This document shows, in pieces, positions 17,868 to 28,380 of a DNA stretch of 64,000 bases. The stretch's first letter is position 1, and each line of letters begins with the position of its first letter. Origin of the DNA: Planctomycetota bacterium (GTDB lineage: Bacteria; Planctomycetota; UBA1135; UBA2386); assembly GCA_965228735.1 (NCBI GenBank), contig OZ245838.1, positions 6,016,001 through 6,080,000 on the forward strand, given 5' to 3'. Below the pieces are notes generated by a model. That model was not told the DNA's origin. It ran no database searches and was given only the letters and a program-made list of their open reading frames with translations. The translations under genes and the position numbers were made by a program.

Positions 17868-20204
17868 ATGACGATGGCAGCGTTCTTCGACGACCCCGAC
17901 GATCTGGTCCGCGCGCACGAGAGCGTGCGGCGGCTCGCGGTCGCGATCGCCGGGCGGGCCGGCGACGGGGACGACCTCGCCCAGGAGGCCTGGCTCAAAG
18001 CCCTGCGAAACCGGGCTCCCGGCCCGCTGCGCGACCCCAAATCATGGTGGGGAAGTGTCTTACGAAACGCGAGGCGCGACCGACGGCGGGGTGACGCCCG
18101 CCGCGCGAAGCGCGAGCGGCTGGCGGCGGTGCCGGCCGGGACCGAAGCCGCGACCCCGTTCGACCTCGCGGTCTACGAAGAGCGCCGGCGGGGGCTCATC
18201 GCGGCGATCGAGGCCTTGAGCAGCCCGCAACGCGACGTGATCGTGGCGCGCTACTGGGAGGGGCTCGAGCCGCGCGAGATCGCGGCGCGGACCGGCGAGA
18301 GTGCGGCGGCCGTGCGGCAGCGCCTGCGGCGCGCGCTCGCGGCGCTGCGGGCCAGGGTCGAGCGGCGAGGGGACGCCGGCGCGTGGCTCGCGCCGCTCTG
18401 CGTCGGCGGGTTCGGTGGTCGCGAGTCGGCGGCCCTGGCCGGAACGACGTCATCGTCAGGCGCGACCGCGGTAGGGACCGCGGCGACCGCAGCGGCAGCG
18501 ACCGCTGGAGGAGTCCTGATGAACAAGGTTCTCGTGACGGCGGCCGCGGTCGTGATCGTCGTACTGGGATTCGGCGCGTTCGAGTTCCTCGGGTCGGAGC
18601 CCATCGATCCCGGAGCGCACGGTGCAGCGACCATCGCTGCCGCGGAACTCGATCCGGAGGCCGGGACGGAGCCTCGGCGCGACGTCGCCATCGCATCGGT
18701 CGATGTCGAACGGCAGCCGCGGGTCGTGTCCGAGGTGCCGGCAGTGACGCTCGTGGATCACCGCGGTGAGGGACTCGTCGGCGTGCCGTACTGGCTCGAC
18801 GAACGGCCGCACGACTCGCACCCGGGTACGGCACCCGCCGGCGCGCCGCGAACTCGCGCGGACGGTGCCGTGGACCCGGCGCCGCTCGTGCAGGAACTCG
18901 GCGCCGACGAAGGGTGGCGCGACTGGCTGTGGTTCGAGATCGACGGGCATCTAGCGATGGCCGTGTCGCTCGCGCGTCTCGCGGAGTTCCATCGCGACGA
19001 GACGAAGCTGCCACGGCCGTTCGAGATCGAGGTGCCGAAGCGTCGTCGAGTGCGAGTCTCTGTCGATCGCGTGCCACCGGGTACCCCGTGGCAGGTCAGC
19101 GTGATGATGTGGCGGCAAGGGCAACCACCCGCCAGCCGGCTCGCCACCGAGCTCTCGCGTTCCCAGGACGGCGTATGGCTGCTGCGCAAGGCACTCCGCC
19201 ACGACCACACGATGAGGGAGCCCGCCGTGTTCACGGTACTCGACTCGTGCACGTACTTCTTTCGTTGCGAATCGAGCGTCGTGTCGTTTCGGGATCCGGT
19301 CGTGGAGTCGCGTTCGGGCTCCCGGATCATCTTCTATGCCAAAAGGCCGCGCCCCGCGTTCCTGCTCGAGGTGCTCGAGCCGGGCGGCTGGCACCGCAGC
19401 ACGATCGGCGGCCATTGGCAGTTCGAGGTCGACAACGGCGCGCGCGGCGGCGACTTCGTGAACGGCGTCGCGGCGCCGACGAGCGCCGACTGGCGCCAGG
19501 AACGCTGGGACCGCATGGTCGTCGTCCTGCGCGACGGCGAGCTGTTCTCGATGAAGTGTTCCGAGCTGCCGATGTTCGATCGCGCGGTCACGGTCGTGCG
19601 CGCGTCGGGCCGGCCGGCCATTCGCGCCATCGAGGTCGCGACGTCGGTGATGGAGTGGCCGGGCGCGCGCACCTACTGGCAGGATGGTCTGCGGCTGCGG
19701 TCGACGTGCACGCCCGCGGCACTGCACACGCAGCAGACGAACGATCAGGTCGCGGTGTGGCTGCACGAGAACAACCTCATCGTGCAGACCAATCGACCGG
19801 ACGTGCTCGTCGGACCGTTGCTGCGCATCGCGGAGAACGGCTACGTCGCGCGCGAGACCGGCGGTCGCCTCGAGGTGCTCGACGGCGCCGAACTCGAACC
19901 GCTCGACCTGATGCGCATCGTTCGCCAGTACGCGCGGTCCCAACGTGACCGCGAACTCGTCGTGCGCCACGAACTCACGCTGTCCGGCGTCGTCGCGAGC
20001 AACGACAGCCCGTGGCTGCCCGTTCGCTCGTGGCGCCTGCAGCGAGTCACCGGCTTCGGCTGGCGCATCGTCGAGTCATCGGACGGCGACGTCCACCAAC
20101 GCATCCCGGACGCGATCCCGCTGTGGGCGCCGTTCGCGGCGGGGTCACGGTTGCTGGTGAAGTCTCCGAGCGCAGGCGAGGTCGCGTTGCCGCACTATCG
20201 GTAG
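17868..20204 (+). CDS. ECF-type sigma-70 factor fused to a transmembrane helix and large C-terminal extension
   Basis: Region 2 DDLAQEAWLKAL, region 4 LSSPQRDVIVARYWEGLEPREIA...AVRQRLRRA; hydrophobic helix VLVTAAAVVIVVLGFGAF; start 17868 or 17874. Confidence 0.85.
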   Translation: MTMAAFFDDPDDLVRAHESVRRLAVAIAGRAGDGDDLAQEAWLKALRNRAPGPLRDPKSWWGSVLRNARRDRRRGDARRAKRERLAAVPAGTEAATPFDLAVYEERRRGLIAAIEALSSPQRDVIVARYWEGLEPREIAARTGESAAAVRQRLRRALAALRARVERRGDAGAWLAPLCVGGFGGRESAALAGTTSSSGATAVGTAATAAAATAGGVLMNKVLVTAAAVVIVVLGFGAFEFLGSEPIDPGAHGAATIAAAELDPEAGTEPRRDVAIASVDVERQPRVVSEVPAVTLVDHRGEGLVGVPYWLDERPHDSHPGTAPAGAPRTRADGAVDPAPLVQELGADEGWRDWLWFEIDGHLAMAVSLARLAEFHRDETKLPRPFEIEVPKRRRVRVSVDRVPPGTPWQVSVMMWRQGQPPASRLATELSRSQDGVWLLRKALRHDHTMREPAVFTVLDSCTYFFRCESSVVSFRDPVVESRSGSRIIFYAKRPRPAFLLEVLEPGGWHRSTIGGHWQFEVDNGARGGDFVNGVAAPTSADWRQERWDRMVVVLRDGELFSMKCSELPMFDRAVTVVRASGRPAIRAIEVATSVMEWPGARTYWQDGLRLRSTCTPAALHTQQTNDQVAVWLHENNLIVQTNRPDVLVGPLLRIAENGYVARETGGRLEVLDGAELEPLDLMRIVRQYARSQRDRELVVRHELTLSGVVASNDSPWLPVRSWRLQRVTGFGWRIVESSDGDVHQRIPDAIPLWAPFAAGSRLLVKSPSAGEVALPHYR

Positions 20205-23578: not shown

Positions 23579-24418
23579 CTACTGCGTGAACGCGATGAAG
23601 TCCCGCTGGCCGGCGCCGCTCTCGATCGCGCGGTCCATCGCCGCGGCGATCGCCGGCAGACTGATCGTCTTGTGGTTGCCCGCGGCTTCGAGCATGAGTC
23701 GAGCGTCCTTGCGCGCCATCAGAAGTTCGAACGACGGCGCGCCGCGTTCGCCGGCGCTCACGTTCTTGCCGATCATCGGCATCGCGTGCGCGACCTTGAA
23801 GATGTCGAACAGCTGCAGCATGTCGGCGTCTTCGATGTCGTTGCCGCGGCCGATCGCGAGCACGTCACTGAGCGCCGCGGTCATCGCGAAGTAGACGGAG
23901 TTGCCGGCGAGCTTCCACGCGGCCGCGAGCGCCGGGTGATCACCGACGCAGTGCAGTCGCCCGGTCATCGCTCCGAGGTGGCCGTCGAGCGCCGCCTGGT
24001 CCGCGTCGTTCGCCGCAAACACCATCATCCCGCTCGCCTCCCGCGCGTTCTGCGGCGACATGAAGACGGGGGCCGGGACATAGCGCACGCCCTCATTGCG
24101 CAGGCGCTCGTGGCGCTCCGCGACCTTGGGCGGGGCGTTGGTGCTGTGGTCGATGAGCCACGCGTCGGGTGAAAGGCCCGGGCGGAGGGCGGTGATCACC
24201 TCGTCGACGGCGGCGTCCTCGGCGAGCACGAGATGCACGTGCGAGCGGCCCGCGACGGTCGCGGCGGGGTCGCCGGGCGCCGTCGCGCCGCGGCCGACGA
24301 GGGGCTCGGTCTTGCTGGTCGTGCGGTTCCAAACGGCGACGGAATGGCCCTTGTCGAGGAGGCTTTCGACGAATCCGGCGCCGAGCAGGCCGGTTCCCAG
24401 GAGTGCGGTGTCGGTCAT
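23579..24418 (-). CDS. NAD(P)-dependent beta-hydroxyacid dehydrogenase family oxidoreductase
   Basis: LLGTGLLG Rossmann motif, VWNRT, IDHST, catalytic KLAGN, KDARL; start reassigned to ATG 24418. Confidence 0.88.
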   Translation of the reverse strand: MTDTALLGTGLLGAGFVESLLDKGHSVAVWNRTTSKTEPLVGRGATAPGDPAATVAGRSHVHLVLAEDAAVDEVITALRPGLSPDAWLIDHSTNAPPKVAERHERLRNEGVRYVPAPVFMSPQNAREASGMMVFAANDADQAALDGHLGAMTGRLHCVGDHPALAAAWKLAGNSVYFAMTAALSDVLAIGRGNDIEDADMLQLFDIFKVAHAMPMIGKNVSAGERGAPSFELLMARKDARLMLEAAGNHKTISLPAIAAAMDRAIESGAGQRDFIAFTQ

Positions 24419-24566: not shown

Positions 24567-25169
24567 ATGACCGACGATCGATCCCGTTCTCCTCGTTCGG
24601 CCACGCTCGGACTGACCGTGCTTCGCGGTCTGGCCGTGCTCTTCGCCGTCTCCGTCATGGGCTGCTACGTCTGGGACGCCCAGCGCCGGGCCGACGAGCG
24701 CGCGGCCGAGCAGGCCCGCCAGAGCGAGTCGGCGGTCCCGGCCGGAGCGGCTGCCGACGGAACCGTGGCCAACGGCACCGTGGCCAACGGCACTGGGCTC
24801 CAGGGCAACGCGGTGTCCGGCAACGGGACCGCGGAGCTCGAACTCCCGCTCGGCTCGCCGCACACCCCGCCGGAGTTCCTGTCGAGCTCCAAGTTCGCCG
24901 TGATCGTCGACCAGAACGATCAGCCGTTGCCGTCGAGCAAGGGCATGGTGCTTCCGACCGACGTGTTCCTGATGGGTTCGAAGTCGGGCGTTTCGCCGCC
25001 CGCAGTGCTGCCGTCGTCCAAGGTGCTCGTGATCGACGAGTCGCAGTTCCTGTTCTCGTCGAAGTCGGCGGCGCCGCTGCCGGTGCCGTCGCCGCCGGCC
25101 GGCGTCGAGCCCCCTGCACCCGAGAGAAAGCAGGACGAGTCCGGCACCGAGCGCAAGCCCGAGCGATGA
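24567..25169 (+). CDS. Membrane-anchored low-complexity hypothetical protein with five (S/G)SK motif repeats
   Basis: N-terminal hydrophobic helix; FLSSSK, LPSSK, FLMGSK, LPSSK, FLFSSK; stop overlaps next start (ATGA). Confidence 0.75.
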   Translation: MTDDRSRSPRSATLGLTVLRGLAVLFAVSVMGCYVWDAQRRADERAAEQARQSESAVPAGAAADGTVANGTVANGTGLQGNAVSGNGTAELELPLGSPHTPPEFLSSSKFAVIVDQNDQPLPSSKGMVLPTDVFLMGSKSGVSPPAVLPSSKVLVIDESQFLFSSKSAAPLPVPSPPAGVEPPAPERKQDESGTERKPER

Positions 25170-26086
25170 TCACGACCGAACTGCTGCTGCACACGGCGAA
25201 GACGTTCGGGATCCTGTTCGTCGTGTTCCTGCCGCTCGAACGGCTGGCGCGCGGCCACGAGCAGCCCGTCTTCCGTCGCGGGTACGGCACCGATCTGCTG
25301 TTCTTCCTCGGGCAGTACCTGCTCTGGACCGCACCGGTGCTGCTCGCGCTGGCGTGGATCTTCAACAATTCCCAGCACCTGCCGCTCGAGCCCGTCCGCG
25401 CCACCGTCGCGGCCTGGCCATGGCCGGTGCAGTTCGTCGCGGTGATGTTCCTCAGCGACCTCGCGATCTACTGGGGGCATCGGCTGTCGCACAAGTACGA
25501 GTTCCTGTGGCGCTTCCACCGCGTGCACCACACGGCCGAACGGCTCGACTGGCTCGCGGCGCATCGCGAGCATCCGTTCGACAACCTCTACACGCGGACG
25601 ATCGAGAACGTGCCGTTGATCCTGCTCGGCTTCCCGCTGCACACGATCGCGGGCTTTGCGATGTTTCGCGGGCTCTGGGCGATCTACATCCACAGCAACT
25701 GCGCGCTGACGCCCGGGCCGCTGCGGTACCTGATCGGCGCGCCGCGACTGCACCACTGGCACCACGCGATCGAGGCGCGCGGGCAGGTCAACTTCGCCAA
25801 CCTGAGCCCGCTCATGGATCTGATGTTCGGCACGTATCACGACCCGGGGCACATGCCAGCCCGGGTCGGCATCACCGAGCCCGCGCCGAAGGGCTACGTG
25901 ACGCAGCTCATCGACCCGCTGCTTCCCGCCCGCGTGCGTCGGCGGCTCGCGGCGAGGGACGGCGGCGGGGCCGTTCCCGAGCCGGTTGCGCCGGTCGCGC
26001 CGGTCGCGCCGGTCGAGCCGATCGCGGCGCCCGAGCCCGCGCTGAGCGGATCAGGCGTCCGCGTCGGCCTGGAGCTCGTCGAGTAG
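25166..26086 (+). CDS. Sterol desaturase/fatty acid hydroxylase family membrane di-iron enzyme
   Basis: His boxes HRLSH, HRVHH, IHSN, HHWHH; several TM helices; start ATG 25166. Confidence 0.92.
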   Translation: MITTELLLHTAKTFGILFVVFLPLERLARGHEQPVFRRGYGTDLLFFLGQYLLWTAPVLLALAWIFNNSQHLPLEPVRATVAAWPWPVQFVAVMFLSDLAIYWGHRLSHKYEFLWRFHRVHHTAERLDWLAAHREHPFDNLYTRTIENVPLILLGFPLHTIAGFAMFRGLWAIYIHSNCALTPGPLRYLIGAPRLHHWHHAIEARGQVNFANLSPLMDLMFGTYHDPGHMPARVGITEPAPKGYVTQLIDPLLPARVRRRLAARDGGGAVPEPVAPVAPVAPVEPIAAPEPALSGSGVRVGLELVE

Positions 26087-26832: not shown

Positions 26833-28380
26833 ATGGCGTTGCCACGCGCGACTACCGGCCCTGGCTCGTCATGGGGCGTGACGCTCGGTTTCGGCGTGGT
26901 CGCCGCCGTGCTCTACGCCGTGACGTGGCAGGACGCGCTGCACGGACTCGACTGGCGCTTCATGGTGCTGTGGTACGAGGACGGCTACGTGCATCCGCAG
27001 CACCCGGGGTATCTGCTCGCGGCTCACGTCCTCGGCTGGCTGCTCGTACCGTTCGGTCTCTCGACGTTCGACCTGCTCGCGGCGCTGTCGGTTCTCGGCG
27101 GCGCCACGGCCGTGGCCGGGCTGCATCGCATCGCCTCGGTGGCGTCGGCCGACGTCGGGATTGCCGATGCGTCCGAGACCGGCGTCGCGGCTCGTTGGTT
27201 GCCGTGCTGGTTCGCCGGGCTCGGGATGCTGACCCCGGCGGTGTGGCATCACTCGACGGTGGTGGAGCTGCACGCGCCGTTCCTGGCCGTCGTCGTCTGG
27301 GCAGCGTTGCCGCTCGTTCGCTGGGCGCGGAGTCCGGCATACGGCCAGGTCGTCCTGCTCGGCGTTCTCACTGCGATCGCGGCGCTCATGCACGCGACCG
27401 GGCAGCTGCTCGTGCCCGTCGCCCTGGTAGCGTTGGTGTTCTCGCGGGTTCGCGGCGGTGCTGCGGCGCCGAGCTGGCCGCGAGTCGGGGGCGCGTTCTG
27501 CGCGTTCTTGGTAGCGCACGGCGTGACGTTCGCGACCCTGTTCGCGCTGGTCCGTGGCCTGGGCCCGTTGCCGCCCGCGGCGTTGGCGGTGCCTGGTGCG
27601 CCCGGCCTGGAGTTCGCGGACAACCCGGCGGGTTACCTGCTGAACGCTCTCGGCGGTTCGGACGTCTTTGCGCAGTTCTGGCCGACCATGCGGCGCGAGT
27701 GGCTCGAGCCGTTCGCGCCCTGGTCGGTGCTCGTGTTGATCGCCCTGGCGCTCCGTGCGACGCGCCGCGCGGCTGCGAGCTTCGCGATCTTGTTGCTCGG
27801 CTACCTCCTCGTCGCGGTCGTGCTGTTGCGCGCACAGGTCGACGAACGCGGGGCGTATCTGTTGCCGCTGCTCGGCCCCGCGGTTTGGCTCGCACTGCGG
27901 TTCGCGACGACGATACCGCTGCGGTGCGCGTTGCTGCTCTTCACCCTGCTCGCCGGGGTTGCGTGGCGCGGAGAACCCGGTCGGCTGCCGCCGGATCACG
28001 CGTTCGGCCGCGCAGCCCTGACGCTCGACGAGGTGCGGCCGACGGCGTTCTTCGTCGCCGGCTATCCGGAGATGGACGGCGCGTTGCGCGCGGACCCGCG
28101 TCTCGATGTCGATGTCGCGCTGCGGGCGTGGGGCGAGTTGCGAGCGTTGGGCGGCGACGCCGCGTTCGAGCCGAACGAAGCGCAGATTGCGGCGTGGCTG
28201 CAGCTGCTGGCCACTTCGGCAGGGGAGCGGGGGCGGCGTTTTCTGATCACCGATCGCGCGGTGGAGTGGCTCGGCGAACGCGTGCCGACGTTCGCGAGCG
28301 GGTTCGAGGCCTTCGTCGTCGCCGCCGATGCGAAGCGCGTTTCGGCCGCGGCCGGGGTGGGGGGCTACCTCATCGAGTAG
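26833..28380 (+). CDS. Polytopic membrane protein, possibly GT-C fold glycosyltransferase-like
   Basis: About 10-11 hydrophobic helices; HPQHPGY in first external loop resembles HP(P)GY motif of GT-C/DUF2723-like proteins. Confidence 0.6.
   Translation: MALPRATTGPGSSWGVTLGFGVVAAVLYAVTWQDALHGLDWRFMVLWYEDGYVHPQHPGYLLAAHVLGWLLVPFGLSTFDLLAALSVLGGATAVAGLHRIASVASADVGIADASETGVAARWLPCWFAGLGMLTPAVWHHSTVVELHAPFLAVVVWAALPLVRWARSPAYGQVVLLGVLTAIAALMHATGQLLVPVALVALVFSRVRGGAAAPSWPRVGGAFCAFLVAHGVTFATLFALVRGLGPLPPAALAVPGAPGLEFADNPAGYLLNALGGSDVFAQFWPTMRREWLEPFAPWSVLVLIALALRATRRAAASFAILLLGYLLVAVVLLRAQVDERGAYLLPLLGPAVWLALRFATTIPLRCALLLFTLLAGVAWRGEPGRLPPDHAFGRAALTLDEVRPTAFFVAGYPEMDGALRADPRLDVDVALRAWGELRALGGDAAFEPNEAQIAAWLQLLATSAGERGRRFLITDRAVEWLGERVPTFASGFEAFVVAADAKRVSAAAGVGGYLIE

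Follow-up and report, generated by a model that had tools for sequence, protein, structure and literature searches.

The window, a 64,000-nt stretch of a Planctomycetota bacterium genome (contig OZ245838.1), contains a pair of adjacent genes on the forward strand, the first encoding a small anchored protein with five short SK motifs (here called the partner) and the second a His-box membrane enzyme (Table 1). The preliminary description of this DNA had reported that the partner's stop codon overlaps the ATG of a gene of the sterol desaturase family, and both points stand: an ATGA sequence joins the two genes, and the downstream gene is intact and matches PF04116 with 97.9 bits (gathering cut-off 31). 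The overlap suggests that the two genes are translationally coupled; in 44 related pairs the gap between them ranges from −10 to 101 nt, as roughly estimated start positions place it. A divergent NAD(P)-binding oxidoreductase gene and a convergent RNase III gene flank the pair, which therefore forms a separate unit. The oxidoreductase gene (window 23579-24418, minus strand; PF03446) lies outside the conserved unit, since its synteny is restricted to the close relatives L004, L024 and L025. The RNase III gene overlaps the final 36 nt of the enzyme gene (window 26051-26086), inside a low-confidence Pro-rich tail. A promoter scan gave no match exceeding those in shuffled sequences. Elsewhere in the window, an ECF-type sigma factor (Sigma70 regions 2 and 4) is fused to about 600 amino acids that have no Pfam match (17868-20204, plus strand), and a 515-aa membrane protein (26833-28380, plus strand) has a weak, below cut-off match to PMT_2 (E 0.0058). 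A glycosyltransferase beside a putative hydroxylysine protein is a tempting link; this PMT_2-like gene is shared with just one other locus.

Table 1. Features of the partner-enzyme gene pair, with positions in the window
Feature	Position	Strand	Basis or remark
SK-motif partner protein gene, 200 aa	24567..25169	+	ORF; basic N-terminal tail, one helix, disordered Pro/Ser-rich tail, five motifs
Anchor/leader helix, residues 16-46	24612..24704	+	Orientation (N-in/C-out) and docking (enzyme TM1, TM5) are predictions; interface list, charge bias
Motif 1 (K109)	24876..24902	+	9-codon window
Motif 2 (K125)	24924..24950	+	9-codon window
Motif 3 (K139)	24966..24992	+	9-codon window
Motif 4 (K152)	25005..25031	+	9-codon window
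Motif 5 (K166)	25047..25073	+	9-codon window
ATGA stop/start overlap of partner and enzyme genes	25166..25169	+	Sequence
His-box di-iron membrane enzyme gene, PF04116, 306 aa	25166..26086	+	ORF and Pfam match
Clade-specific G49-Q50...W54, TM2	25310..25327	+	Clade/outgroup alignment
His boxes 1 and 2 (H105, H109; H118, H121, H122)	25478..25531	+	Invariant in 120/120 clade proteins
E135-H136 and TM4 face (N140, R144, E147, N148); E135 and N148 clade-specific	25568..25609	+	Alignment
R168-G169-x-W171 in TM5, and H176	25667..25693	+	R168: clade 100%, outgroup 0%
His box 3 (H196, H197, H199, H200) and clade-specific N212	25751..25801	+	Clade/outgroup alignment

AlphaFold2, run with 90 relatives of the partner, predicts a single confident helix at residues 10-55 and no secondary structure in the remainder, a Pro/Ser/Ala-rich tail. 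The five motifs in this tail follow the pattern hydrophobic-hydrophobic-x-(S/G)-S-K, and all five, which had been described as having conserved residues and diverged codons, are present as written. Their Ser codons are a mixture of TCG, AGC and TCC, and thus the motifs are not a DNA repeat. When the partner was shuffled 100,000 times, no shuffled version had five motif matches and the best, four, occurred once; no second such motif cluster is present in any other frame of the 7.19-Mb genome, and in a genome-wide profile scan the five motifs rank 1-4 and 6. The regular spacing that had been noted is true of this copy (16, 14, 13 and 14 aa) but does not extend to 150 relatives, in which the spacing varies from 8 to 92 aa (median 25).

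A profile search with the partner found 614 clusters at E<=1e-3. The best 150 of these contain 492 motifs, 0 to 7 each, with the consensus (F/L/Y)-(L/M)-(P/S)-(S/G/T)-S-K-(S/V/F)-(G/L/A)-(V/A/P)-(I/L). When the respective position was left free in these 150 partners, which came from a motif-bearing profile, the lysine position was occupied by K in 336 of 339 cases and by R in none, and the residue preceding it was S or T in 336 of 338. Partners picked by gene position, a set that was also motif-screened, gave K in 65/65 and S/T before the lysine in 65/70. This strict use of lysine and never arginine suggests chemistry on the amine rather than a need for charge. In the motif-bearing representatives 24 aa or more separate the helix from the first motif, and the alignments contain no conserved cleavage motif in the spacers; in one partner (L126) a motif lies right at the helix end. 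No Pfam or NCBIfam family is common to the partners; a Pfam scan of 90 members gave no match to a carrier domain (acyl, lipoyl or biotinyl), and the model of the partner shows no fold beyond the helix. The ESM Atlas gave no usable partner match, and the homologue P0108 led just to generic sterol-desaturase clusters there. A partner-side search for fusions over proteins of 677-2000 aa returned one match, P0271, a Kelch-repeat false positive; its Kelch-repeat turns resemble one variant of the motif, a hint of hairpin propensity, and AlphaFold2 formed no hairpins in the motifs. Some of the partners P0175, P0267, L030 and L032 have an extra C-terminal membrane helix and a basic tail, and at least one of them matches TPR families.

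The enzyme is the sole match of its family in the genome, and its model has a pLDDT of 89.8. In a tree of 185 enzymes (5 duplicate loci, fragments below 200 aa and 10 sequences scoring below 150 omitted), a clade of 61 has a support of 0.999 and a branch length of 0.49; support was weak (0.52) in an initial tree that included very distant sequences and became 0.999 once the 10 low-scoring sequences were dropped. Members of the clade are found in Planctomycetota, Verrucomicrobiota, Bacteroidota and Myxococcota, and an annotated enzyme from a named species is that of Roseimicrobium gellanilyticum (WP_113962155.1; the enzyme gene alone was considered). No clade member was found in a plasmid search, where the best match is 39% identical, and no solved sequence in the PDB matched the clade profile. 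The 11 His positions examined do not vary among the 120 database proteins that score highest against the clade profile, and Q50, E135, N148, R168 and N212 are each likewise present in 120/120 of these top scorers. Residues G49, Q50, W54, E135, N148, R168, G169, W171, G191 and N212 are present in 89-100% of the clade but in 0-9% of 124 outgroup enzymes, which are mostly hydrophobic at these positions. Helix register, rather than coordinates, would place Q50, R168 and N148 at membrane depths of about 10, 12 and 18 Å, measured from the metal side. Ninety-four of 119 outgroup enzymes, and OlsE-like proteins too, have one more helix at the N-terminal end, whereas among 57 clade loci there is one instance, an out-of-frame artefact; clade enzymes begin at TM1, and their annotated N-termini are uniformly short in 120/120. 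Twenty-five outgroup loci (e.g. L132, L147, L155, L171) also have neither the extra N-terminal helix nor an SK partner, and other partners are possible there.

The enzyme is patchily distributed, with matches at E 1e-90 or better in 19 of 401 Planctomycetota genomes, its own included, and the partner goes with it. At least one upstream motif occurs at 51 of 57 clade loci versus 12 of 120 loci outside the clade, and at least two at 39 of 57 versus 1 of 120. These counts come from a recount that applied a single loose rule, free of hand edits, to loci having 300 nt or more of upstream sequence; it thereby removes the hand-set labels of the tree, in which 8 loci whose motifs the helix filter had missed were set to "SK" and outgroup locus L171 to "none". 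Close homologs without an SK neighbour had been named beforehand as evidence against the pair, and an SK ORF stands immediately in front of the enzyme gene in each of the 16 distinct loci that reach 50% identity (17 rows less one duplicate, own locus included), which belong to Planctomycetota, Verrucomicrobiota and Bacteroidota; the enzyme loci that rank next, at 42% identity or less, have just scattered single motif matches. Clade loci sampled later, from 251 Myxococcota, 251 Verrucomicrobiota and 301 Bacteroidota genomes, have a partner in 8/8 cases, plus 1/1 more. Among 41 relatives, strong partner matches are confined to the same 5 genomes that carry the enzyme and lie beside it, and four weak matches sit in long ORFs that on inspection are not motif proteins. 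In a second family the partner profile matches 4 of 6 enzyme-positive and none of 23 enzyme-negative genomes, and the two enzyme-positive genomes that it missed have motifs by eye. All these counts include related, non-independent loci and many incomplete genomes.

No acyltransferase, protease, transporter or transferase accompanies the pair in 59 neighbourhoods, many of them short. An all-against-all comparison of the ORFs in these neighbourhoods found no third gene common to them beyond close kin, save one 5-locus cluster that resembles a Ser/Thr kinase. The pair is a real, widespread and unannotated two-gene system, and its two proteins very probably work together. With none of the enzymes or transporters just named beside the genes, there is no support for the acyl attachment to the motif suggested earlier or for a classic released RiPP.

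An SK motif is missing from six clade loci whose upstream sequence is long enough to judge: three have partners with IAP repeats, two have GPK partners and one is an orphan. Their enzymes retain R168 in all six cases and E135 in five. At the three IAP loci (L114, L117 and L123, all from metagenomes) a short lipoprotein-like partner ORF has repeated IAP in a Pro-rich context and no motif lysine, and their enzymes, alone in the clade, carry H (one enzyme) or R (two) at position 50; these loci possibly represent a switch to another substrate residue. The L123 enzyme also carries E135K and D139G. The two GPK partners (L203:1005-1487, plus strand, presumably a pilin-like protein, and the ORF upstream of the L137 enzyme) have GPK directly after the helix, and residue 148 of their enzymes is M or T. 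Within the SK loci, Ala at motif position −2 goes with enzyme residues G140/Q144 (6/6 motifs) and Ser at this position mostly with N140/R144/E147 (40/46); the evidence for covariation, here and at position 50, comes from one to three evolutionary events in related lineages. Three further loci may be decaying copies: L145 has a clade enzyme and no partner ORF was found there, L201 has an N-terminally truncated enzyme without a partner, and L202 has a partner and a stop inside the enzyme match.

More positive charge precedes the partner helix than follows it in 107 of 150 partners (the reverse is true of 19) and in 36 of 47 in another set. By the lipobox rule, the signals of three myxobacterial partners end in lipobox-like sequences, and 2 of the 150 partners end in another helix and a basic tail. 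On these grounds the motifs are predicted to be exported, and they likely lie outside the cytoplasm. The loop composition of the enzyme and knowledge of its family suggest that its iron site faces the cytoplasm. The preliminary description did not contain this prediction of exported motifs opposite the iron site. According to PMC10110569, the His boxes of AlkB sit on the cytoplasmic side and its substrate channel runs into the membrane. With such an arrangement two routes are left to a motif: through the channel from the periplasm, to us the likelier in view of the location of the polar residues, or modification ahead of export.

A model of the complex, built from enzyme residues 1-262, partner residues 8-172 and two irons, has a score of 0.86, against 0.00 for the best control. 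The mark applied to this score is reached by 116 of 157 solved pairs and 2 of 215 mismatched pairs, a calibration that holds roughly here, as custom alignments and iron lie outside it. The runs share at least 23% of their contacts, with a partner pLDDT of at least 45. The confident interface consists of partner residues 16-46 on enzyme residues 16-28, 158-174 and 181, and the partner helix is modelled antiparallel to TM1 and along TM5. Partner residue 23 contacts enzyme residues 23-24, residue 27 contacts 20-21 and 174, and residues 35-42 contact 162-167; the partner would therefore be N-in/C-out, in agreement with the charge bias. The model supports binding of the partner's anchor helix to the enzyme, where the docked helix would occupy the place expected of the lost N-terminal helix. 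The controls were unrelated proteins and not signal anchors; an empty groove for a helix might therefore accept any hydrophobic anchor, and a high score can also arise simply because the added chain completes a truncated fold. Motif residues are not confidently placed in the model, which is evidence neither for nor against motif binding; the suggestion that the motif is a docking element gives way to the N-terminal helix as the predicted one. For descent of the partner helix from the enzyme's lost helix by a split of the gene, HH-align gave no support: it found no profile similarity between the partner helix and the outgroup's extra helix (probability 0.8%, control helices 0.3-2.8%; power is low with such short helices).

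A close known counterpart in the His-box family is OlsE (NCBIfam NF052566, fatty acid hydroxylase superfamily), which hydroxylates C4 of the ornithine headgroup (PMC12971839) and so acts on a basic amino-acid side chain. OlsE-like proteins and the clade are both polar at alignment positions 50 and 212. The clade enzyme is nevertheless not OlsE, to which it is 24-27% identical (113 bits against a cut-off of 475); OlsE-like proteins keep the N-terminal helix and do not have E135 or R168, and the known substrate of OlsE is a lipid. The top structural match of the enzyme in both searches, a weak one, is the yeast sphingolipid alpha-hydroxylase Scs7p (PDB 4ZR0/4ZR1; Foldseek E 2.6; Z 4.7, rmsd 6.5 over 177 residues, 18% identity), which acts on an acyl chain, unlike the lysine substrate proposed below. 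In multi-core RiPPs such as the cyanobactins, microviridins and dikaritins, a precursor with several cores is processed by a cognate modifying enzyme. The SK pair resembles these in its disordered chain, along which short conserved cores occur in varying number, its adjacent enzyme, its conserved (here predicted) N-terminal recognition element and the apparent co-variation of core and enzyme. It differs in having a membrane anchor or lipoprotein signal for a leader and an integral membrane di-iron protein for an enzyme, and in that there is no protease, transporter or other conserved gene and no conserved cleavage motif in the spacers; we do not file it as a RiPP, because the test for cluster-encoded release machinery fails. 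The protein lysyl hydroxylases (collagen LH1-3 and JMJD6) have a chemistry like that proposed here, O2-dependent lysine hydroxylation at a short repeated motif, but LH and JMJD6 belong to the 2-oxoglutarate/Fe enzymes, which have no kinship with membrane His-box proteins; EpmC, the EF-P hydroxylase, is another protein lysyl hydroxylase. We know of no His-box enzyme that modifies a protein, and the literature search did not contradict this; that search, made at the level of titles and abstracts in a collection with few subscription journals, returned no relevant report on the pair, and supplements of genome-mining papers may list it.

The reading we favor, to which we give a probability of roughly 0.5, is that the two genes encode a dedicated enzyme and substrate, in which the partner's anchor serves as leader and the enzyme oxidizes the invariant lysine of each motif. 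The earlier proposal that the motif is a modification site for the neighboring enzyme gains support from the strict lysine and Ser/Thr and from the polar enzyme pocket. The partner's membrane helix would dock on the di-iron enzyme and work like a leader peptide, filling the gap at the enzyme's N-terminus. The hydrophobic-flanked motif would then loop from the periplasmic side into a polar channel (Q50, R144/E147, N148 and R168), where E135, beside the metal ligand H136, may hold the lysine amine; alternatively, modification could take place on the cytoplasmic side prior to export of the tail. O2-dependent oxidation of the lysine, by analogy with OlsE most probably hydroxylation of its side chain, would draw electrons from a donor encoded elsewhere. 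The product would be a tethered or lipidated envelope protein with several hydroxylysines (or aldehydes) and not a released peptide. The fuller version of this scheme is tentative, and we lean against it as a whole: a lipid-hydroxylase branch would have turned to protein modification, with the substrate's signal anchor acting both as leader and as the missing helix and with exported lysines drawn through a transmembrane polar channel to a cytoplasm-facing di-iron center.

The main objection to lysine oxidation concerns topology, since the motifs probably end up outside and the iron site is expected on the cytoplasmic face. The channel geometry is moreover read from helix register, the Arg/Glu pocket fits an amino-lipid headgroup equally well, and the SK-less clade loci have kept the pocket residues R168 and mostly E135. 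In the main rival, the partner is a structural subunit that stands in permanently for the lost first helix, and the substrate of the enzyme is a lysine- or ornithine-lipid headgroup, hydroxylated on the cytoplasmic side. The exported SK motifs would have another role, for example in binding a periplasmic or outer-membrane partner or as substrate of an unlinked enzyme. We consider this rival possible though doubtful. It needs no membrane crossing, it agrees with the presence of the extra helix in most outgroup enzymes and its loss in the clade and with a predicted interface whose confident part is the helix alone, and R168 and E135 would suit a carboxylate and an amine. Hydroxylysine lipids do exist in a Bacteroidota species, with no hydroxylase assigned to them (PMC4484230). 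On the other hand, a structural subunit leaves it unexplained that this partner alone in the genome carries the motif and that pocket residues vary along with it; partners with lipobox-like ends would presumably lose the helix on maturation, 25 of the 119 outgroup enzymes manage without either extra helix or SK partner, and the partner helix has no detectable sequence kinship to the lost one in the low-powered comparison above.

Of the remaining explanations, one retains the interaction of motif and pocket without any modification: the motifs would be pseudo-substrate plugs, mimics of a lysine lipid that regulate or gate the enzyme according to the state of the envelope. This would explain the strict lysine, the covariation, the tethering and the distance of the first motif from the helix, but one plug per enzyme would be enough, yet 1 to 7 near-equivalent copies are kept, and a non-covalent plug might tolerate arginine; it is an unlikely reading. 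Another would make the motif an acyl or cofactor arm, its Lys or Ser loaded by an unlinked transferase in the style of lipoyl, biotinyl or phosphopantetheine groups, with the enzyme hydroxylating or desaturating the tethered chain. The invariant S/T-K, loosely like the turns of swinging arms, speaks for such an arm. The enzyme family also normally acts on acyl chains (PMC10110569), but the 90 partner members scanned have no carrier-domain match, the modelled partner has no fold, the 59 neighbourhoods contain no transferase, and the pocket has become polar instead of greasy, and we think an arm of this kind very unlikely. That the genes are neighbors by inheritance only, and the motif a product of low-complexity drift, would be in keeping with the Pro/Ser/Ala-rich tail and with kin that are not independent samples; it is largely refuted by the persistence of the pair in four phyla with no other shared neighbor, by joint gain and loss within families and by varying codons under a fixed motif, and hardly any weight is left to it.

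Even if the partner should turn out to be a structural subunit, it represents an unannotated family of at least 614 clusters that belongs to an enzyme clade spread over four phyla. If lysine oxidation is correct, membrane His-box di-iron enzymes, which have been described as acting on lipids and alkanes, also modify proteins, and RiPP-like genome mining should add "sterol desaturases" and membrane-anchored precursors to its targets. The pair would then be a new route to the oxidative modification of bacterial envelope proteins, and switches of substrate, from SK to IAP or GPK, would already be visible within the clade.
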